This document shows positions 36,149 through 49,971 of a stretch of 64,000 bases of DNA, in pieces. A program made the position numbers and the translations under genes. Each line of letters begins with the position of its first letter. Within the stretch, counting starts at the first letter, position 1. Below the pieces are notes generated by a model that worked only from the letters and a program-made list of their open reading frames with translations, was not told where the DNA came from and searched no databases. The DNA lies in contig JBEHYR010000007.1 in NCBI GenBank assembly GCA_048498075.1, forward strand, positions 39,949-103,948. The letters are read 5' to 3'. Origin of the DNA: Verrucomicrobiota bacterium. GTDB lineage: Bacteria; Verrucomicrobiota; Verrucomicrobiia; Opitutales; Opitutaceae.

Positions 36149-38059
36149 TCACTCGATCCCGAGATTCAGCGGCAGTCGCGCATATAATCCCTGCGGATCG
36201 CTGAAACTCTTCAGCTCCCGCAACTCGGCTTCCATCCGCGCCTCCACCTGCCCGAGCACGCCGTGCGCGCGCGCATTGTTCGGCGCCATTTTCTCGATCA
36301 ATTCCTGCAACGCCTCGGCGAACTCTTTTTTCCGCGGATATTCCACGAGTCGATAGTTTCCACCCACACCCGCCTTCATCGCGGCGAACCGGATCGCCGA
36401 GTCGAGTCCGCCCATTTCGTCGACCAATCCGATCTTCTTCGCCTCTGCGCCCGACCAGACTCGTCCTTGCGCGATCTCCTCCACGAACTCGCGCTTCAAT
36501 TTCCGCCCTTCCGAAACTTTCGTGATGAACTGGTCGTAGCCCCAGTCGACCATCCGCTGAAAAACCGCCATCTCCTCCGGCGTCTTCGGCCGCGTGATCG
36601 TCAACGCATCCGCAAATTTCCCCGTCTTCACGCTGTCGAACGTGAAGCCGAAATCGTTCGCGAGCTTTTTCACGTCGAACTGGATTCCAAAAATTCCGAT
36701 CGAGCCCGTGATCGTCGTCGGCTCCGCAAAAATCCGGTCGCCGTACGCCGAGATCCAGTAGCCGCCCGACGCCGCATACGTGCCCATCGACACGATCACC
36801 GGCTTCACTTTTTTCGCGAGCCGCACTTCGCGCTGAATCGCCTCCGAGCCCGATGCCGAGCCGCCCGGGCTGTTCACCCGCAGCACGATCGCCTTCACGT
36901 CGTCGTCCAGCCGCAGCCGGCGCAGTTCGCGCGCGTAGCGCACGCCGCCGATTTCTCCCTGCTCGTCGCCTTCGCCGTCCACGATATCTCCCTCGGCATA
37001 GACGATCGCCACTTTCCCGCCGTGCCCCGTCGCCGGCGCGTCCGCGACTCCGCCCGCGCGGTTCTTCTCCTTCGTCTCCTTCGCGTCTTTCGTCTCCTTG
37101 GCCTCTTTCGCAGCTTTCGCCAATTTGACGTCTCTCTGTCTCGCCGGCTCCGGCGCGTCTTTGATCACCTTCGAATAATCCGCGATCGTCACCTGCTTGA
37201 AAGTCTCCCGCTCGCCCGCGCGCCCCGTGGCTTTTTTCAACTCGTCGATGATCTCGTCGCGATACGCGATCCGGTCGATGAGCTTCGCCGCCTTCGCCGC
37301 CTCCGGCCGGATCAACCCCTCCGCATCGACCGTCGTCTGGATCGCCTCCGGCTTGAGCTGCCGCGCCGTGGCGATGTCCGCCAGCAATCCGCCCCAGATA
37401 TCGCCGAGGAGTTTTTCCATCTGCTCGCGACTCTCCGGACTCATGTCTTTCCGCGTGAAGGGCTCGACGAAAGATTTGTATTTTCCCACGCGCGTCACCT
37501 GCACGCCGATGCCGTATTTCTCGAACGCCCCCGCCATGAACATCGGCTGCGTTGCGAGGCCGGGCATGATGATCAGCCCGTAAGGATCGAGCGCGAGGTC
37601 GGTCGCCGCCGACGCGAGATAATAGTTCTTCGTCGTCGCATAGGTTAGATATGCGCGCACCGGTTTCCCGGACGCCGCGAAATTCCTCAGCGCGCCCCGC
37701 ACTTCCTTCAACGTCGCATAACCCGGCCCATAACCCGCGAGCGCCGCGTCGCCTTTGATGAACACGCCCGCGATCCGGTCGTCCTTCGCCGCCGCCCGCA
37801 GTGTGCGCAACACCGTCCGCAATTGCAGTGTCCCCGCGCGATCCGCGCCCAGCGCCCGAAAATCCACCACCGGCGGCGCATCGGTGATCGCCGACGACAG
37901 GTCCAGCACCAGGTACGATCCGTGCTCCACGCTCACGCCCTTCTTCTCGCCCAGCGCCGCGATCGCGCCGATGCAGCCGATGAACAGCAACGTGCCGCCG
38001 AAGGTGAAGACAATCAGCGCGACCAGTGCGCCCAGCATCGACGTGAAGAAGTTTTTCAT
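36149..38059 (-). CDS. sppA: Signal peptide peptidase SppA (long form)
   Basis: GKYKSFVEPF, RVNSPGGSASGSE, SMGTYAASGGYWIS, TITGSIGIFG, QGRVWSG. Confidence 0.95.
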   Translation of the reverse strand: MKNFFTSMLGALVALIVFTFGGTLLFIGCIGAIAALGEKKGVSVEHGSYLVLDLSSAITDAPPVVDFRALGADRAGTLQLRTVLRTLRAAAKDDRIAGVFIKGDAALAGYGPGYATLKEVRGALRNFAASGKPVRAYLTYATTKNYYLASAATDLALDPYGLIIMPGLATQPMFMAGAFEKYGIGVQVTRVGKYKSFVEPFTRKDMSPESREQMEKLLGDIWGGLLADIATARQLKPEAIQTTVDAEGLIRPEAAKAAKLIDRIAYRDEIIDELKKATGRAGERETFKQVTIADYSKVIKDAPEPARQRDVKLAKAAKEAKETKDAKETKEKNRAGGVADAPATGHGGKVAIVYAEGDIVDGEGDEQGEIGGVRYARELRRLRLDDDVKAIVLRVNSPGGSASGSEAIQREVRLAKKVKPVIVSMGTYAASGGYWISAYGDRIFAEPTTITGSIGIFGIQFDVKKLANDFGFTFDSVKTGKFADALTITRPKTPEEMAVFQRMVDWGYDQFITKVSEGRKLKREFVEEIAQGRVWSGAEAKKIGLVDEMGGLDSAIRFAAMKAGVGGNYRLVEYPRKKEFAEALQELIEKMAPNNARAHGVLGQVEARMEAELRELKSFSDPQGLYARLPLNLGIE

Positions 38060-38309: not shown

Positions 38310-39818
38310 ATGTCGCAGAGCGATCAGAAGACTCTCCTCACCACCAACCGCAAGGCCCTCACGATCAATCTCGACGAGCCGAAATACGGCACGTTCGCCG
38401 AGATCGGCGCCGGCCAGGAAGTCGCCCGCGTGTTCTTCCAAGCCGGCGGCGCCTCGGGCACGATCGCGAAAACGATCTCCGCCTACGACATGGCGTTCAG
38501 CGACGCCATCTACGGCAAGGCCCCGCGCTACGTCTCCCGCGAGCGCCTCAGCCTCATGCTCGAGCACGAGTACAACCTCCTCATCGAGCGCCTCGCCGCC
38601 TCGCGCGGCGACCGCACCACCTTCTTCGTTTTCGCCGACACCGTCGCGGCCCGAAATTACAAGGGCACCAACGAAGCCCACGGCTGGATGGGCGTTCGCT
38701 TCCAAACCGAACCCGGCGGCGTGCCCAACGAAATCGTCATCCACGTCCGCATGTGGGATAAGGAAAACGTCCTCCAGCAAGACGCCCTCGGCATCGTCGG
38801 CACCAACCTCATCTACGGCGCCTTCTACTATCGCGACGACCCGCGCAAGTTCACCGAGTCGCTCCTCGATAACCTCAGCGCCGACCGCATCGAGGTCGAC
38901 ATGCTCAAGTTCAGCGGCGCCGCATTCGGCCACGTCGACAACCGCCTGATGTCGCTCTATCTCGTCCAGTTCGGCCTCACGAACGCCGTCATGTTCGGCG
39001 CCAACGGCGAGGTTCTCCAGCCCTCGGAAATCCTCTACAAAAAAGCCATCCTCGTCGAACGCGGCAGCTTCCGCCCCGTCACCCACGTCAACGTCGACAT
39101 GCTCAACTGCGCCTCCGCGCAGTTCGTCCAGGAACCCCTCGTGAAAGGGAAGGACATCGTCGTGATCATGGAGATCACGATGAACAACCTTCTCGCCGCC
39201 GGCTCGCTCGACGCCCAGGACTTCCTCTCCCGCGTGGACCTCCTCGCCGAACTCGGTTTCACCGTCCTCATCTCGAACTACTCCGAGTATTTCCGCCTCA
39301 CGTCCTACTTCCGCCGTTACACGAAGGAGATGATCGGCGTCGCGATGGGCATCAACAACCTCCTCGAGATCTTCAACGAGAAATACTACGAGAACCTCGA
39401 AGGCGGCATCCTCGAATCCTTCGGCCGGCTCTTCCGCCACTCGGTGAAACTCTACGTCTACCCGATGCGCCAGGACGCCTACGGCCACTACCTCAACTCC
39501 GCCCCGACCGCGCCCGCGCCCACCGCCACCGCCGCGAATTCCTTCGCTGCCTCCGTCCTGATCAACGCGAAAAACGTCCAGGTCGTCGACCATCTACGCA
39601 ACCTCTACAATCACCTCCTCGAGAACCACTACATCGAGTGTATCGTCGGATTCGATTCGAGCATCCTGCACATCTTCTCCCGCGACGTCCTCCGCCGGAT
39701 CAAGGAACGCGATTCGACCTGGGAGCAAATGGTCCCCGAATCCGTCGTCAGCGCGATCAAGAAGCGCCACCTCTTCGGCTACAGCGAAACCGCCGCCGCC
39801 TCGACGCCCGCCGCCTGA
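38310..39818 (+). CDS. Conserved cytoplasmic protein with a degenerate nucleotidyltransferase-like C-terminal domain
   Basis: YGTFAEIGAGQEVAR, AKTISAYDM, GSFRPVTHVN; no signal peptide or beta-barrel pattern. Confidence 0.7.
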   Translation: MSQSDQKTLLTTNRKALTINLDEPKYGTFAEIGAGQEVARVFFQAGGASGTIAKTISAYDMAFSDAIYGKAPRYVSRERLSLMLEHEYNLLIERLAASRGDRTTFFVFADTVAARNYKGTNEAHGWMGVRFQTEPGGVPNEIVIHVRMWDKENVLQQDALGIVGTNLIYGAFYYRDDPRKFTESLLDNLSADRIEVDMLKFSGAAFGHVDNRLMSLYLVQFGLTNAVMFGANGEVLQPSEILYKKAILVERGSFRPVTHVNVDMLNCASAQFVQEPLVKGKDIVVIMEITMNNLLAAGSLDAQDFLSRVDLLAELGFTVLISNYSEYFRLTSYFRRYTKEMIGVAMGINNLLEIFNEKYYENLEGGILESFGRLFRHSVKLYVYPMRQDAYGHYLNSAPTAPAPTATAANSFAASVLINAKNVQVVDHLRNLYNHLLENHYIECIVGFDSSILHIFSRDVLRRIKERDSTWEQMVPESVVSAIKKRHLFGYSETAAASTPAA

Positions 39819-40575: not shown

Positions 40576-41013
40576 TCAAGGCCGGATTGCCTCCTGTTTC
40601 TCCCGAAGCGCCTTTTCCTTTTCTCGCAACGCGCGCCGCGACGCGACGTCGTCCGCGATGGCTTGGAGTCGAGCCTCATTCGCCCCGGCGACCGCGATCA
40701 GGAAGGTGAGCTGTCCCCCCTTTTCTGCCTCAGCGGCAGCATCGCGACGCATCATTTGACACCGAATCGAATCCCCGACCGCGTAACGCTTCTGCAGAGG
40801 AATCGGCGTGGTGACCACCACCTCGTGGTCTTTCCATCGCACGAGATACGCGACATAGTCCGCGCCGTCCTCCCGAAAAGAGAGATCCTTGATGACTTTC
40901 GAGGTGAATGTCTCGCCCGCCCAGCCCGATTCCCGGACATAATCCTCTGCTGCGAAAGCAGCGATGGTTCCGCACGCCAAGAAAAGAGCGGCGGTGAATA
41001 GCTGTGTTTTCAT
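40576..41013 (-). CDS. Secreted hypothetical protein
   Basis: Signal peptide MKTQLFTAALFLACGTIAAFA; charged C-terminal helix. Confidence 0.7.
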   Translation of the reverse strand: MKTQLFTAALFLACGTIAAFAAEDYVRESGWAGETFTSKVIKDLSFREDGADYVAYLVRWKDHEVVVTTPIPLQKRYAVGDSIRCQMMRRDAAAEAEKGGQLTFLIAVAGANEARLQAIADDVASRRALREKEKALREKQEAIRP

Positions 41014-42226: not shown

Positions 42227-42697
42227 TCAGGCTCTTTTGCGGCTGAGCACATATAAAATCGTCATCTTGCCCTCCTCCCAAACCTCGATCGAAAGCCCGT
42301 CCCCCGCCAACTCCAGCCGCAACAGCACCTCTTGTGGATTGTCATCGTCGGGAATCTGAAAATGTCGCGCCCGGATTTCCGCCACATCGTCTCTCGCGCT
42401 CGCATCGAGAATCTCGAAGCGCGGATTCAAGGCCCCGCCGCGGGCCACCAGCACCGAGTTGCTCACGTTGAGAAACGCCATCAACGGCTTTCCGTATCTC
42501 TTGTGCATGGGCGCGAGCGACGCGCCGATTTTGCGAAACCGCTCCCGCTGCTCCGCCGTTCTCGCTCGTCGGGGCCACTCGAGCGCGGTCGCTTTTTCGT
42601 CGAAAAACCAGCGCCCCAGAAACCGCGGCGGCAGCTCCCGGCCGAAACTGCCGCCAGCCATCCCCGCCATGAACAGCACGATGATCGACAACCTCAT
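42227..42697 (-). CDS. Secreted hypothetical protein
   Basis: Signal-like N-terminus MRLSIIVLFMAGMAGGSFG. Confidence 0.6.
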   Translation of the reverse strand: MRLSIIVLFMAGMAGGSFGRELPPRFLGRWFFDEKATALEWPRRARTAEQRERFRKIGASLAPMHKRYGKPLMAFLNVSNSVLVARGGALNPRFEILDASARDDVAEIRARHFQIPDDDNPQEVLLRLELAGDGLSIEVWEEGKMTILYVLSRKRA

Positions 42698-42900
42698 GAT
42701 TTTTGCCCGGGAGACACCTTCGACTCACAGCTCTGCTCTCTGCGGTTGGCAAGGTTTCATCGCGAACGCTCACCGGCCTTCTCCCGCGCGTCGTCGCGAA
42801 TCGATCCCGCATCGATCGCGCGCAGCCGTGTCATTCTGCCGCGAAATTTTTTCCGTGTATTCCATGGTTTCCGTCGGCAATTTCTCGCCTCCACGTCCCC

Positions 42901-43764
42901 ATGCGCTTCCACAAATACCACGCCCTCGGCAACGACTACATCGTCCTCGATCCGCGCGACTTTCCCGCCTGGACGCCCGCGCCGAGCGTCGAGCAGATTC
43001 GCGTGATCTGCCACCGCAATTTCGGCGTCGGCTCCGACGGCATTCTCTGGGGCCCGCTCCCGTCGACGACGAGCGACTTCGGCCTGCGCATCTTCAACCC
43101 CGACGGCTCCGAAGCCGAAAAATCCGGCAACGGCCTGCGCATCTTCTCCCGTTATCTCTGGGACCAGTCGCTCGCTAAAAACCCTTCCTTCACCGTCGAG
43201 ACTCCCGGCGGCCACGTCCAATCCGTCATCAAGGAAAACGGCCGCCTCATCACCGTCGCGATGGGCAGCGTGAGTTTCGCCTCGGACAAAATTCCCGTCG
43301 ACCTCCCCGGCGCCCCGCGCGAAGCGATCAACGGAAAAGTCGCCGTCCTCGACCGCGAGTTCACCTTCTGCGCCGCCACGATCGGCAACCCGCACTGCGT
43401 CATACCGGTCGGCGACGAACTCTCCCCCGCGCTCGCGCATCGCTACGGCCCGCCCCTCGAGACGCACCCGCTCTTCCCGCGGAAGACCAATGTCCAGTTC
43501 CTCCGCGTCCTCGACCGCGCCAACATCCAGATCGAGATCTGGGAGCGCGGCGCCGGCTACACCCTCGCCTCCGGCAGCAGTTCCAGCGCCGCCGCCGCCG
43601 TCGCCCACCGCCTCGGCCTCGTCGATCGCAACGTCACCGTGCACATGCCCGGCGGCCAGATCGGCATCGAGATCGGCGACGGCTTTTCGATCATGATGAC
43701 CGGCACCGTCAACAAAGTCGCCACCGGCGCGATGCACCCCGAACTCTTCGCGGTGAAAGTCTGA
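42901..43764 (+). CDS. Diaminopimelate epimerase-like protein (both catalytic Cys replaced by Ser)
   Basis: KYHALGNDY, GVGSDG, NPDGSEAEKSGNG, GNPHCV, WERGAGYTLASGS. Confidence 0.85.
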   Translation: MRFHKYHALGNDYIVLDPRDFPAWTPAPSVEQIRVICHRNFGVGSDGILWGPLPSTTSDFGLRIFNPDGSEAEKSGNGLRIFSRYLWDQSLAKNPSFTVETPGGHVQSVIKENGRLITVAMGSVSFASDKIPVDLPGAPREAINGKVAVLDREFTFCAATIGNPHCVIPVGDELSPALAHRYGPPLETHPLFPRKTNVQFLRVLDRANIQIEIWERGAGYTLASGSSSSAAAAVAHRLGLVDRNVTVHMPGGQIGIEIGDGFSIMMTGTVNKVATGAMHPELFAVKV

Positions 43765-44238: not shown

Positions 44239-45756
44239 GTGATTGGCCGCCTCGCCGACCTCTTCCGCCTCGCGTGGGGCCTCCTCTATTGGAATACCCG
44301 CAAATCCTGGTTTCGCCTCCGCCGCGGCCGGGTGCGCTGTCCGTGCCAGAGCCCCAGTGATTCCGGCCGCGCGTTCGAGACCATCTGCGAAGCCTCGCTG
44401 AGTTGGAATAACCAAGCCGCCTTCCACCGCGTTTGCCCGCTTCTCGTCTCCACGCCCGATGGCCTCCGCTGCTCGGTGGATACCGCCGACGTTCGCCCGT
44501 TCTGGCGTCGCGCCATCGCCTACTATGGCGTCACCGCACTCGCGCTCTATCTCGCCGCCGCCGTCGCGCTTTTCGTTTTCCTGCGCACGGTCGGCTATCC
44601 GATCAGCATCGTCCACCTCGTCTGGCCCGGATCCTGGCATCACGTCGGCGAGGTGCGCGGTTGGTTCTTCCTCGATCGGTCGAACCGCGCCTTCGCCGCC
44701 GGCCGCCCCGCCGAGGGCATGCTCTATCTCGCCAACGCCTACGAGTTCAACCCGACCGACTACCGCGTCGCCGCCACGCTCGCCCAAAAACTCCAGCTCA
44801 ACAATCCCCACCGCTCCGACGCGATCTATCAACGCCTCCTCCGCGAACATCCCGCCGAGCGCGCCGCCACCGCGCAAACCTGGTTTCGCGCGCTCCTCGC
44901 CCGCGGCGATTTTCCCGCGATCGAGCAACTCGCCTCCGCCGAACTCCTCGCCGATCCCAATCATGCGGCCGTGTGGCTGCGCGCTTTCATTTTCGCGAAT
45001 CGCCAAACCGCCGCCCTCGGCCCCCTCGACGAACTCATCGGCTCCCCAGCGCCCCAAGCCAGATCCTGGAATCCGCTCCTTTCGATCGAACGAGACCTCC
45101 GTACCGGCCACGTCTCCCGCGCCCTCGCCGCCCTGAAACGCCCCTGGTCGAAAGCGCCGCCCTACGCCCTCTTTTATCAAATCGGCGAACTCATCGCACA
45201 CGACCAAGCCCTCCTCGCCGTCGACCTCGTGGGCAGCTACCAGAGCCGCCTCGACGACACCGCGCGCGCCACGCTCCTCCTCGACGCCTACGCCGCGCTC
45301 GACGCCGACCGCACGCGCGAACAGCTCGTCGACTCGCTCCTCGCGCCGCCCCTCAACCTTCCCACGATCAACCTCCTCGCCGCGCACCTCATCCGCCACC
45401 CCGACCCGACGCTCCTCGACCACCTCTTCGCGAAGTTCACCCGCGAGAAACCGCCCGTGGTCGACGACACGCTCGAAACCTACCTCGCGCTCTTCTGCGC
45501 CGCCGGCGCCAGCGGCGACTGGCACAAACTGCACCTCATCTCCGGCGCGCTCCGGCGCGACGGCGGCGGCAACTCGCTGACCCTCGGCCTCGCCGAGAGT
45601 TTTTTCCGCGGCCTCACCCCGCAGACGCGCATCGCCGGCCTCCTCTCTGCTCTCCCCACCACGCTGGAGATCCACTACGCGCTGCTCGAACGTTATCCCG
45701 GCAATGCCCGCGGCTCCGCCAACCAGCCCGCCGCCGTTCCCGCGCGCAAGCCATGA
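44239..45756 (+). CDS. Exosortase-linked membrane-anchored helical-repeat (TPR-like) protein with a Cys-rich N-terminus
   Basis: RCPCQSPSD..C..C..C, one TM, then alpha-helical repeats; ATGA-coupled to the exosortase. Confidence 0.65.
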   Translation: MIGRLADLFRLAWGLLYWNTRKSWFRLRRGRVRCPCQSPSDSGRAFETICEASLSWNNQAAFHRVCPLLVSTPDGLRCSVDTADVRPFWRRAIAYYGVTALALYLAAAVALFVFLRTVGYPISIVHLVWPGSWHHVGEVRGWFFLDRSNRAFAAGRPAEGMLYLANAYEFNPTDYRVAATLAQKLQLNNPHRSDAIYQRLLREHPAERAATAQTWFRALLARGDFPAIEQLASAELLADPNHAAVWLRAFIFANRQTAALGPLDELIGSPAPQARSWNPLLSIERDLRTGHVSRALAALKRPWSKAPPYALFYQIGELIAHDQALLAVDLVGSYQSRLDDTARATLLLDAYAALDADRTREQLVDSLLAPPLNLPTINLLAAHLIRHPDPTLLDHLFAKFTREKPPVVDDTLETYLALFCAAGASGDWHKLHLISGALRRDGGGNSLTLGLAESFFRGLTPQTRIAGLLSALPTTLEIHYALLERYPGNARGSANQPAAVPARKP

Positions 45757-47387
45757 GCGCCACCGCCGCCACACCGCCCGCCGCCGCGCTCATCGCATCG
45801 CCCTTCCGCGCCCTCCCGTGGCTCGCCCGGTGCAACCTCCTCGCCGTCGCCCTCCTCGCCGCCGCACTCACCGCCCTGCTCTGGCCGCACTGGCGCGACA
45901 ACGCCGATCTCTCCCACGCCTTCTTCATGCCGGCGATTTTTCTCTATCTGCTGCACGAGGCGCGCACCGGCACGCCGCGCTTCATTTCGTCTTCCCGCAC
46001 GGTCACGCTCGGCGCGAGCGCGCTGCTGCTGCTCGCCCTCCTCGCCCTCATCGCCAGCGGCCTCTACGCCGCCGCGCTCGACTGGACGCACTCGCTCGTC
46101 GCCTGCACGCTCACCATCGCCTTCGCCGGCCTGCTCGCCGCAAGCCTCGTCGTGTTCGCCTCCGCCCGCGTGCGCTTTCTCCCGCTGAACTGGCCGGCCT
46201 GCGCCGCCGTCGGCCTCTGGTTGCTCAGCACGCCGATCCCGCCCGGCACCTACACGCAGCTCACGCTTCGCCTGCAATTGATGGTCACGGAAAACGTCCT
46301 CCGCGCGCTCCACCTCCTCGGCATCGCCGCCAGCCGCTCGGGTAACGTCATCGATCTCGCCACCACGTCGGTCGGCGTCGAAGAAGCCTGCAGCGGCATT
46401 CGCAGCCTCGTCTCGTGCCTCTTCGCCGGGATTCTTTTTTCCGCCACGCTCGTCCGCCGCCCGTGGGCGCGCGCCCTCCTCATCGCGCTCGCCGGCCCGC
46501 TCGCCATCGCGATGAATTTCTTCCGTTCGCTCACGCTGACGCTCCTCGCGAACGCCGGTATCGACATCTCCGGCACGTGGCACGACGTCACCGGCTTCGC
46601 CGTCCTCGGCCTCACCGCTCTCCTCCTCGGCGCCCTCGCCCTCCTCCTCGCCCGCGGCGAAACGTCCTTCGCCCAAACTCAAAACTCAAAACCCGCACCC
46701 GCCGCACCCGCCGCGCCCTCGACGGCGGCTCACCGCCTCCTCGCCGCCGGCCTCGCCGTCGCCGTCGCGCTCGCGATTTTTTTCTACGCCAACACCCGTC
46801 CCTCGCTCCGCCAGAGTCTCCCCGTCCCGAATCTCGCCGCCATCCTGCCGACTCACGCCGACGGCTGGCACGTCGAGACCGCGCGCGACCTTTACCAATT
46901 CAGCGCGACGCTCCACACCGACCACCTCGCGCAACGCACCTATCTTCGCTCCACGCCGCACGGCGTCGAGCAGCTCACCGTTTATCTCGCCTACTGGCGC
47001 CCGGGCCAGGCGCCCGTGAGTCTCGTGGCTTCGCACACCCCCGACGCCTGCTGGCCGGGCAGCGGCTGGACGCCCGCCGTCCCCGAGCAGACGCGCGCAG
47101 CGCTCCCGATTTCCGGATACACGCTGCCCGAGGCCGAAGCGCGGCTCTTCAAAAGCGGCGACTTCCCCCAATACGTCTGGTTCTGGCATCTCTACGACGG
47201 CCGTCCCATCGCGTTTCGCGATCCCTACTCGGCGCGCGCGCTCCTCGCGATCGCGTGGCACTACGGTTTCACCCACGACGGCGATCAGCTCTTCGTCCGC
47301 GTGTCCAGCAACCGTCCCTGGTCCGCGTTCGCCCAGGAACCGCTGCTCCGCGAAATCTTTTCCCGCCTCCAACCTCTCGGCCTCTGA
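45753..47387 (+). CDS. Exosortase fused to an EpsI-like C-terminal domain
   Basis: VEEACSGIRSL, MNFFRSL, WHDVTG; SHTPDACWPGSGW in the C-terminal domain. Confidence 0.88.
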   Translation: MSATAATPPAAALIASPFRALPWLARCNLLAVALLAAALTALLWPHWRDNADLSHAFFMPAIFLYLLHEARTGTPRFISSSRTVTLGASALLLLALLALIASGLYAAALDWTHSLVACTLTIAFAGLLAASLVVFASARVRFLPLNWPACAAVGLWLLSTPIPPGTYTQLTLRLQLMVTENVLRALHLLGIAASRSGNVIDLATTSVGVEEACSGIRSLVSCLFAGILFSATLVRRPWARALLIALAGPLAIAMNFFRSLTLTLLANAGIDISGTWHDVTGFAVLGLTALLLGALALLLARGETSFAQTQNSKPAPAAPAAPSTAAHRLLAAGLAVAVALAIFFYANTRPSLRQSLPVPNLAAILPTHADGWHVETARDLYQFSATLHTDHLAQRTYLRSTPHGVEQLTVYLAYWRPGQAPVSLVASHTPDACWPGSGWTPAVPEQTRAALPISGYTLPEAEARLFKSGDFPQYVWFWHLYDGRPIAFRDPYSARALLAIAWHYGFTHDGDQLFVRVSSNRPWSAFAQEPLLREIFSRLQPLGL

Positions 47388-47518: not shown

Positions 47519-47790
47519 TCCTCGATGGGAGCGGAAAAAATCTCACCAGCCTCTCGGCCGGTTGCAGCAGCGATGCCGCGCTCGTCGGCGGTAAACCTCG
47601 CGAAATCCCGCGCGCCAGCGCCGGGCGCCGCCTGTGATTTTTTGTCGTCGCCAACCTCACCCCCGCGCGCAACTTTCCGCCCACCCGTGCGAATCATCGC
47701 TGGCAGCCTCTCACTTTTTCCTGCACCGCCGGCCCGCTTGCGTTGCCGACGGTCGTGCCCGAACGGCTGCGGTTACGTGGAAACCGCCGC

Positions 47791-48582
47791 ATGAGTTTGC
47801 CCCTCGCCACTCCCCCGCCGGATGCCCGCCCGCCCGCCCCGCTTTCCTTCCGCGTCCTGATTCCCTGGGCGATTGTCGCAGGCCTCGCCGTCGGCGGCGC
47901 CTGGCTCGGCCAGCTCTATTTCGCCGCCCGCGCCGAGATCGCGTTGCTCCACGATCAGGAGGCGCTCTCGAACCTCGCCGTCATCGGCGCCCGCCAGCAG
48001 GCCGAAGCCGAGCGCATCCTCTCGAACCGCCAGCTCGCCGAGGACAAACGACACCTCGTGCAGCTCGATCAGCAGATCGCCCAGTCGACGCACCAGATCG
48101 CCGACGCCCGCCGCGAGATCGTCGAGATCAGCGCCCGCCTCGTCACCAGTCGCATCGAACTTCACCAGCTCCGCGAACGACTCGCCTCCGTTACCGATGA
48201 CGCCTCCACGTTGAGGGAGCGCCTGAAAACCGAAACCGATCTCGCGCAATTCCAGCTCGTCGCGCTCGCCTCCCCCGCCGCCGGCTCCTCCTCGCCCAAC
48301 GCCCTCGTGGTCTGGAACCCCATCGCGCAGGCAGGCCTCCTCCGCATCGAGAAACTTCCCGCGGCCGCGAGCGACCGGGATTACCAGCTCTGGATCGGTG
48401 ACCCTGCGTATCCGGAACCCGTCGACGCCGGCGTTTTCACCGTCGACGCCGCCACCGGTGCAGCGCGCATCACCTTCAAACCGCGTCAACCCGTCACGAA
48501 CCCCACGCAGTTCTCCGTCCGCCTCGAACGCAAAGGCGGCGCTCCGAAAGCCGCGGGGCCTGTCCTGCTCGTCGGCGAGTGA
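47791..48582 (+). CDS. Anti-sigma-K factor RskA-like protein (TM, coiled coil, RskA C-terminal domain)
   Basis: DYQLW, PVDAGVF, FSVRLERKGGAPKAAGPVLL. Confidence 0.75.
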   Translation: MSLPLATPPPDARPPAPLSFRVLIPWAIVAGLAVGGAWLGQLYFAARAEIALLHDQEALSNLAVIGARQQAEAERILSNRQLAEDKRHLVQLDQQIAQSTHQIADARREIVEISARLVTSRIELHQLRERLASVTDDASTLRERLKTETDLAQFQLVALASPAAGSSSPNALVVWNPIAQAGLLRIEKLPAAASDRDYQLWIGDPAYPEPVDAGVFTVDAATGAARITFKPRQPVTNPTQFSVRLERKGGAPKAAGPVLLVGE

Positions 48583-48786: not shown

Positions 48787-49971
48787 ATGATTATCAAGCC
48801 CCGCGTCCGCGGTTTCGTCTGCGTCACTTCCCATCCGCTTGGTTGTGCCGCCCACGTCCAGGAGTGGATCGATCACGTGAAGTCGAAGGGCGCCATCAAG
48901 GACGGCCCGAAGAAGGTGCTCGTGCTCGGCGCATCCACCGGCTACGGCCTCGCGTCACGCGTGACCGCCGCCTTCGGCTCCGGCGCGGCGACGCTCGGCG
49001 TCTTCTTCGAACGCCCCTCCGAAGAGGGCCGCCCCGCCACGCCCGGCTGGTATAACACCATCGGTTTCACCCAAGCCGCGCGCGCCGCCGGCCTCTACGC
49101 CAAAAATATCAACGGCGACGCGTTCTCCGACGACATCAAGCGCCAGACGCTCGACCTCATCCGCGCCGACCTCGGCCAGGTCGACCTCGTGGTCTACTCC
49201 CTCGCCTCGCCCCGCCGCGTGCATCCGAAAACCGGAGTCGTTCACAAATCCGTCCTCAAACCCGTCGGCTCGTCCTACACCAACAAAACCGTCGATACCG
49301 ACAAAGGCATCGTCAGCGACATCACCATCGAGCCCGCCACCGAAGCCGAGATCGCGGACACCATCACCGTCATGGGCGGCGAAGATTGGGAGCTGTGGAT
49401 CGACGCCCTCAAATCCGCCAACCTCCTCGCGCCCGCCGCCCAGACCGTCGCCTACTCCTACATCGGGCCCGACGTCACCTGGCCGATCTACAAAAACGGC
49501 ACCATCGGCCTCGCGAAAAATGACCTCGAGCGCGCCGCCCGCGCCCTCGATGCACTCCTCAAACCCACCGGCGGACGCGCCTTCATCTCCGTCAACAAAG
49601 CGCTCGTCACGCAGGCCAGCTCCGCGATTCCCGTCGTGCCGCTCTACATTTCGATCCTCTACAAGATCATGAAGGCGCAGGGCACGCACGAGGGCTGCAT
49701 CGAGCAAATGCAGCGCCTCTTCGCGACCCACATGTACAACGGCCACACGCCGAAGTTCGACGAAGACGGCCGCGTCCGCGTCGACGACCTCGAGATGCGC
49801 TCCGAAGTCCAGGCCGCCGTCCGCGAGATCTGGCCCACGGTCACGACCGCCAATCTCGTCGAGAAAACCGACATCGCCGGCTACCGCTCCGAATTCCTGA
49901 AACTCTTCGGCTTCGGCCTCGACGCCGTGAACTACGAAACCGACGTCGAGCCGCACCTCCCGATGCTCTGA
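48787..49971 (+). CDS. fabV: Enoyl-ACP reductase FabV
   Basis: MIIKPRVRGF...HPLGC, GASTGYGLASR, YSLASPRR, TVMGGEDW, YSYIGP, TQASSAIP. Confidence 0.96.
   Translation: MIIKPRVRGFVCVTSHPLGCAAHVQEWIDHVKSKGAIKDGPKKVLVLGASTGYGLASRVTAAFGSGAATLGVFFERPSEEGRPATPGWYNTIGFTQAARAAGLYAKNINGDAFSDDIKRQTLDLIRADLGQVDLVVYSLASPRRVHPKTGVVHKSVLKPVGSSYTNKTVDTDKGIVSDITIEPATEAEIADTITVMGGEDWELWIDALKSANLLAPAAQTVAYSYIGPDVTWPIYKNGTIGLAKNDLERAARALDALLKPTGGRAFISVNKALVTQASSAIPVVPLYISILYKIMKAQGTHEGCIEQMQRLFATHMYNGHTPKFDEDGRVRVDDLEMRSEVQAAVREIWPTVTTANLVEKTDIAGYRSEFLKLFGFGLDAVNYETDVEPHLPML

Follow-up and report, generated by a model that had tools for sequence, protein, structure and literature searches.

Cofactor-independent amino acid epimerases are the textbook example of two-base catalysis by a thiol/thiolate pair, and diaminopimelate (DAP) epimerase (DapF) is an antibiotic target that has been studied with cysteine-directed inhibitors. 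The 64,000-nucleotide stretch of Verrucomicrobiota DNA analyzed here (“the window”) encodes a DapF homolog with serine at both of the catalytic positions. A preliminary description of the locus took this paired substitution as the sign of a distinct subfamily, and considered a new activity plausible. Is the protein still a DAP epimerase, or something else built on the same fold? Very probably it is the former: the housekeeping LL-DAP/meso-DAP epimerase (EC 5.1.1.7) of its genome, belonging to a natural Ser/Ser class and present as the sole DapF. The sequence features, the fold, the clade to which the protein belongs, its status as sole copy, the pathway around it, and the gene fusions are shown below; the catalytic competence of this particular protein is inferred.

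The gene is an uninterrupted frame of 287 codons, without internal stops. A mechanical list of open reading frames begins it farther upstream, at a TTG at 42703, but the 120 closest homologs are mostly 284–288 amino acids long and share the N-terminus M-[RK]-F-x-K-Y-H-A-L-G-N-D-Y (MRF/MKF..YHALGNDY); since both length and N-terminus agree with it, the start is placed at the ATG at 42901. The gene and the codons that matter most for the argument are as follows:

42901..43764, + strand: dapF, probable Ser/Ser-type diaminopimelate epimerase, 287 amino acids plus stop (PF01678, TIGR00652, alignment to solved DapFs)
42931..42933, + strand: Asn11 codon (GNDY), equivalent to Anabaena Asn13; invariant in the Ser/Ser and Cys/Cys groups
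43123..43125, + strand: Ser75 codon, TCC, in the motif EKSGNG; opposite catalytic Cys75 of Anabaena DapF (Cys73 in Haemophilus influenzae)
43543..43548, + strand: Glu215-Arg216 codons (ERG); invariant in the Ser/Ser and Cys/Cys groups
43570..43572, + strand: Ser224 codon, TCC, in the motif LASGSS; opposite catalytic Cys224 of Anabaena DapF (Cys217 in H. influenzae)

That the protein belongs to the DapF family is clear from several directions. It contains two copies of the Pfam domain PF01678 (DAP_epimerase; 183.7 bits against a cut-off of 34.7, E = 1.4e-54) and scores 228.2 bits against the NCBIfam equivalog model for DapF, TIGR00652 (cut-off 114.65); no Pfam family other than PF01678 is found in it, Pro_racemase included. 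With phmmer it aligns end to end with solved DapFs, including PDB 9mro (Anabaena, 3.6e-54), 8qzy (Pseudomonas aeruginosa), and 3ejx (Arabidopsis), with E-values from 1e-52; among PDB sequences, O-ureidoserine racemase (7vdy) scores 135 bits in the same search. In these alignments “aeKSgng” faces “peMCgng” and “tlaSgss” faces “tlaCgtg”, so that translation and alignment together bear out the earlier reading of TCC at 43123 and at 43570 as replacements of both catalytic cysteines. The substrate motifs GNDY (N11), GNPH (N163, H165), and ERG (E215, R216), likewise described beforehand as intact in an undecayed frame, are all retained. By the textbook definition of the thiol subclass (Cys/Cys) the protein falls outside it, because Ser75 and Ser224 hold both positions. 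Annotation with models of the TIGR00652 type gives such proteins the name DapF, and the differing catalytic pair goes unflagged.

The serine pair is not peculiar to this assembly. The preliminary description had allowed for a sequencing error, in which case homologs should all retain cysteine; instead EKSGNG and ERGAGYTLASGSS are found in 120 of the 120 closest homologs (82–100% identity), the Opitutus terrae protein among them. When 1.84 billion cluster representatives at 50% identity were searched exhaustively with HMMER, about 140 of the best 150 proved to be Ser/Ser, down to about 40% identity, with a fully canonical Cys/Cys protein first turning up at rank 144. Within a 34-sequence alignment of the subfamily, Ser75 is invariant and Ser224 is kept in at least 90%. 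Both serine codon families are used at both sites: among 180 distinct genes, Ser75 is encoded by AGC in 96, AGT in 45, and TCN in 39, and Ser224 by TCN in 155 and AGY in 25. Serine has therefore been maintained through switches of codon family, which together with its occurrence in hundreds of assemblies excludes error and recent drift. A sequencing error or pseudogene was considered as an explanation for the window gene and is ruled out on the same two grounds.

At the structural level, an AlphaFold2 model built on the 34-sequence alignment (pLDDT 96.4, pTM 0.92) has the predicted two-domain, pseudo-symmetric DapF fold, with the catalytic positions at the N-termini of two central helices: in the model Ser75 directly precedes helix 76–88, and Ser224 directly precedes helix 225–237. 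Cys75 and Cys224 of Anabaena DapF have the same helix-N-terminus geometry (PMC12039745). The best Foldseek matches (TM 0.89–0.92) are to the closed form of this enzyme, 9mro, and the top 26 chains are all DapF except for those ranked 14 and 20, which belong to O-ureidoserine racemase (7vdy). More broadly, canonical Cys/Cys DapFs (9MRO, 8QZY, 3EJX, H. influenzae 1GQZ/2GKE, Escherichia coli 4IJZ) have the same length, domain order, and fold as the modeled protein, with TM 0.83–0.92 and about 35–39% identity over the structural alignments, and share its DAP-contacting residues and two capped helices. No natural Ser/Ser DapF is among the solved structures in the PDB entries searched with phmmer and Foldseek.

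The substrate pocket can be compared residue by residue with that of Anabaena DapF, in which aziDAP is contacted by Asn13, Asn66, Gly76, Asn77, Asn164, Asn197, Glu215, Arg216, Gly225, and Thr226; Asn13 touches the alpha-amine of the reacting center, and Glu215-Arg216 recognize the distal L-center of DAP (PMC12039745). The window equivalents are N11, N66, G76, N77, N163, N197, E215, R216, G225, and S226, the last with its hydroxyl kept, and all ten positions vary little or not at all within the subfamily and are common to the canonical set. What does set the Ser/Ser group apart, besides the catalytic pair, is a group of positions conserved within it and different in 33 canonical sequences: Y6, I81, F126, Q199, S227, M249, P250, and V270. 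Tyr6 replaces a canonical Met or Trp, Ile81 the third conserved cysteine of the canonical GNGxRC, Ser227 a Gly, and Val270 an Ala. In Anabaena DapF the Gly227 amide donates a hydrogen bond to the Cys224 sulfur. None of the Ser/Ser-specific positions, as defined against these 33 sequences, is an obvious helper general base.

At the level of the genome, the reaction is needed. The assembly is 6.04 Mb and 100% complete, and PF01678 matches the window gene alone; a canonical dapF elsewhere, which the preliminary description suggested looking for, was not found. LL-DAP is made, by DapL (570 bits), and meso-DAP is used, by LysA (449 bits) and by MurE (525 bits), which has the DNPR motif that marks meso-DAP-adding ligases. 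No meso-DAP dehydrogenase (Ddh) bypass was found in the complete genome. The window protein is thus the only candidate for the epimerase between these steps.

Gene fusions provide a further link to the pathway. Elsewhere the Ser/Ser domain is joined to LysA (P0135 and P0141; TIGR01048, 360 and 410 bits, over the cut-off), to MurE (P0161; TIGR01085, 451 bits, over the cut-off), and to alanine racemase (Alr; P0160, P0201). A search restricted to long proteins, with the DapF part of P0141 as query, returned 244 matches. Among the best 120 of these, 98 are at least 600 amino acids long, almost all of them with Pfam domains for both LysA and DapF. In at least 113 of the 120 the first site reads xSGNG, and in nearly all the second reads SG[ST]S, while CGNG is found in none. 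Some of the contigs carrying LysA-DapF fusions are as long as 1.3 Mb, and several of the fusions are named Chloroflexota. The joining of a Ser/Ser domain to a meso-DAP-consuming enzyme argues strongly, through guilt by association, that the domain functions as a DAP epimerase. Other partners were seen as well: a gamma-glutamyl cyclotransferase-like (GGACT) domain, GNAT acetyltransferases (in several clusters, one of them named Planctomycetota), and a SAM methyltransferase. Representatives of Ser/Ser fusions are P0160, P0201, P0161, P0149, P0171, P0198, and P0368/P0375/P0382/P0384.

Genome scans place the Ser/Ser clade in more than 10 phyla: Verrucomicrobiota, Planctomycetota (Pirellulales, Phycisphaerales, Brocadiaceae), Cyanobacteriota (Aphanothece and many Nostocales), Chloroflexota, Thermodesulfobacteriota, Myxococcota, Armatimonadota, Spirochaetota, SAR324, Bdellovibrionota, Actinomycetota, and Pseudomonadota. 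In a maximum-likelihood tree it is parted from the Cys/Cys copies by a branch with 100/98 support, and the window protein lies inside it, within a four-member Opitutaceae group (also 100/98). The distinct subfamily proposed in the preliminary description therefore stands: it is old, conserved, set off by a well-supported branch, and marked by co-varying positions (I81, S227, V270, and others). Among the Nostocales relatives compared, second DapF copies of the Ser/Ser type from Anabaena minutissima, Trichormus, Nostoc, and Fischerella fall in the same large clade; the closest cyanobacterial copy, from Aphanothece, is about 60% identical to the window protein.

How the two types are apportioned among genomes was surveyed at two scales. 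Within the phylum, 101 high-quality genomes were searched with a Ser/Ser profile. Each of the 20 that belong to the window's order, Opitutales (at least 99% complete), has exactly one DapF, of the Ser/Ser type (357–407 bits), and the complete genome of Verrucomicrobia bacterium IMCC26134 also has this type only. Outside the order, 25 of the 29 inspected genomes have a single Cys/Cys DapF, and the other four, one from family f24 and three from family f32, carry the Ser/Ser type. Since f24 holds genomes of both kinds, the distribution is patchy. There, G110 (L206) has a Ser/Ser DapF alone and G065 (L246) a Cys/Cys DapF alone, a contrast that suggests lateral replacement rather than vertical descent. 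Among 30 phylogenetically diverse genomes that carry the Ser/Ser gene, it is the sole DapF in 20, and a canonical MCGNG/ACGTG copy stands alongside it in 10; five Nostocales genomes each have both types. For genomes with both, a somewhat different role of the Ser/Ser copy would also fit.

DapFs with two catalytic serines and the same fold are already in the literature (Lamer et al., J Mol Biol 437:169375, 2025; PMID 40774471), as cited in a 2026 paper in Proteins on P. aeruginosa DapF (PMC13728532), the one paper citing that work that a literature search found. As summarized there, Anabaena sp. YBS01 encodes one Cys/Cys and one Ser/Ser DapF, and changing Ser to Cys in the latter inactivates it (PMC13728532, citing Lamer et al., 2025). 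The window protein resembles the Anabaena enzyme, as far as that account describes it, in its DapF fold and in carrying serine at each of the two catalytic positions, but the Anabaena enzyme is a second copy beside a Cys/Cys one, and the window protein is the only copy in its genome and in its sampled order. The same paper treats disulfide-based inactivation of thiol DapFs (PMC13728532), which is impossible in a Ser/Ser enzyme. A natural Ser/Ser DapF means that epimerase chemistry can run on hydroxyls, a point that by this account has been in print since 2025. The phenomenon is thus already published and biochemically supported, and the window protein, judged by its clade, is probably a further member. 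No enzymology was found in the literature for it or for any member from the Verrucomicrobiota.

Ser75 and Ser224 lie at the helix N-termini, on opposite faces of the reacting C-alpha. If the protein does work as a DAP epimerase, one serine would act as base and the other as acid in a two-base 1,1-proton transfer, a mechanism suggested by the fold and by published work on the class. Their hydroxyls would presumably be activated in some way. By nature the hydroxyl of serine is far less acidic than a thiol, which counts against a housekeeping epimerase. In H. influenzae DapF, single Cys-to-Ser mutants are said to be strongly impaired. Structures of these engineered proteins, C73S and C217S (2Q9H, 2Q9J), are among the top Foldseek matches to the window protein, with which they share serine at one catalytic position; they are however single artificial changes in a thiol-tuned scaffold, whereas the natural clade has both serines and co-evolved positions (by comparison with canonical DapFs, Cys75 and Cys224 to Ser, the third Cys to Ile81, Gly227 to Ser, Ala270 to Val, and Met/Trp to Tyr6). 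The Ser/Ser form would have replaced the Cys/Cys form as the only DapF of this genome and its order, and would supply meso-DAP to LysA for lysine and to MurE for peptidoglycan.

Other readings of the protein can be set against this one. Loss of both thiols might have left a dead pseudo-enzyme acting purely in binding (for example as an RppH-type partner), much as the structures 2q9h and 2q9j exist for engineered single Cys-to-Ser mutants, or the substitutions might be artefacts of sequencing or assembly. Either is barely credible given the Ser/Ser pair in hundreds of independent assemblies with both codon families, the strong constraint on the active-site pocket, and the lack of any other DapF in the genome; in the published system, moreover, the serines are described as catalytic, with reversion to Cys inactivating the enzyme (PMC13728532, citing Lamer et al., 2025). 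A chlamydial-type bifunctional DapF/glutamate racemase, providing D-Glu as well as meso-DAP, comes to mind for a bacterium of the PVC group, many members of which are proposed to lack MurI and to rely on a promiscuous DapF (PMC5885031). This genome has its own MurI (173 bits, cut-off 146.65), and the window protein scores 59.4 bits against the model for bifunctional DapF, NF038284, where the cut-off is 350; the bifunctional reading, extremely improbable on these figures, was therefore dropped.

The new activity raised in the preliminary description would make this a neofunctionalized enzyme of the DapF fold, carrying out dehydration of a beta-hydroxy amino acid, as the Cys/Thr and Ser/Thr proline-racemase-like dehydratases do, or some other epimerization. 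DapF-fold relatives with other substrates do exist, namely histidine racemase (PMC11602996) and the O-ureidoserine racemase 7vdy; a third of the 30 diverse genomes have a canonical DapF to spare; and the fusions to GNAT, GGACT, or methyltransferase domains could be taken in the same sense. The trans-3-hydroxy-L-proline dehydratases (4K7G, 6R76) share the double-domain fold and offer a precedent for replacing Cys with a hydroxyl residue, but at 13–16% identity and TM 0.70–0.73, with a different substrate pocket and a reaction that is dehydration rather than epimerization; proline-racemase-family structures as a whole match only at TM 0.6–0.78 and 13–18% identity. Against a change of substrate are the invariance of residues contacting both ends of DAP, the sole-copy status in a genome where the reaction is needed and in a whole sampled order with the Ser/Ser form only, and the recurrent fusions to LysA, with MurE and Alr fusions also present. 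Published Ser/Ser proteins are, in addition, described as DapF enzymes (PMC13728532). Neofunctionalization accordingly appears quite improbable for the window protein, and this part of the early proposal is not supported.

On the reading of the window protein as a housekeeping epimerase, what is added to the published picture concerns its place in the cell and its spread. With no other DapF in this bacterium or its order, lysine and murein synthesis would depend entirely on the serine enzyme, and, if this is true, an oxygen-based catalytic pair is fully sufficient for growth. For Anabaena, a stress-proof spare copy has been suggested. There is perhaps an even chance that the Ser/Ser enzyme has gone beyond this, displacing the thiol DapF as sole essential epimerase in all Opitutales, spreading patchily through more than 10 phyla, with patchiness down to the level of a single family, and becoming joined to LysA in Chloroflexota, with this lateral spread and displacement perhaps undescribed. 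Three points may still be new: displacement of the thiol enzyme throughout the order, patchy occurrence over many phyla, and fusion to LysA.

The local gene neighborhood is uninformative as to function, both in the window and across loci. In the window its neighbors are a RibD_C protein, two proteins of unknown function, an exosortase, an RskA-like protein, and FabV, none of them connected with the synthesis of lysine or murein. Surrounding features, in order, are:

36149-38059, - strand: SppA-type signal peptide peptidase (Peptidase_S49); ordinary housekeeping
38310-39818, + strand: 502-amino-acid ORF, no Pfam family at E <= 0.001; long, with gene-like composition
40576-41013, - strand: 145-amino-acid ORF, no Pfam family at E <= 0.001
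42227-42697, - strand: 156-amino-acid ORF, no Pfam family at E <= 0.001
44239-45756, + strand: 505-amino-acid protein without a Pfam match, directly downstream of dapF
about 45757-47387, + strand: exosortase (Exosortase_EpsH) fused to a DUF3485/EpsI-like domain, after the 505-amino-acid protein
47743-48582: RskA-like anti-sigma protein
48787-49971, + strand: FabV-type trans-2-enoyl reductase (Enoyl_reductase, E = 6e-114); ordinary housekeeping

Neither DapL nor LysA adjoins a Ser/Ser dapF in any of 80 loci, and in 23 non-Verrucomicrobiota loci, which gave 76 flanking proteins, no neighbor family recurs more than twice, DHDPS being found twice.

Some smaller observations concern other sequences in the comparison. 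Mixed catalytic pairs are found in five long-branched proteins, of which four attach basally to the Ser/Ser clade: P0174 is Thr/Cys (EITGNG/LACGSG), P0192 Ser/Cys (EKSGNG/LACGSG), P0153 Ser/Thr (YSSGNG/LSTGTG), and P0260, placed inside the clade, Ala/Ser (ERAGNG/LASGTC); the fifth is P0199. Such proteins may represent intermediate stages in evolution, or they may have activities of another kind. In the phylum survey, the Ser/Ser profile matched no DapF at E <= 1e-20 in 12 of the 101 genomes, six of them from genus g34; examples are G045, G081, G049, G055, and G064 (94–99% complete). These twelve may have very divergent DapFs, or the gene may be absent. Finally, by an open-frame estimate, some Cys/Cys dapF matches in other families contain one or two in-frame TGA, TAA, or TAG codons (for example G070:C11:45544-46383, G032:C2:16697-17533, G073:C48:1407-2192, and G093:C1:2389034-2389849), which may be read-through artefacts at gene ends or real features.
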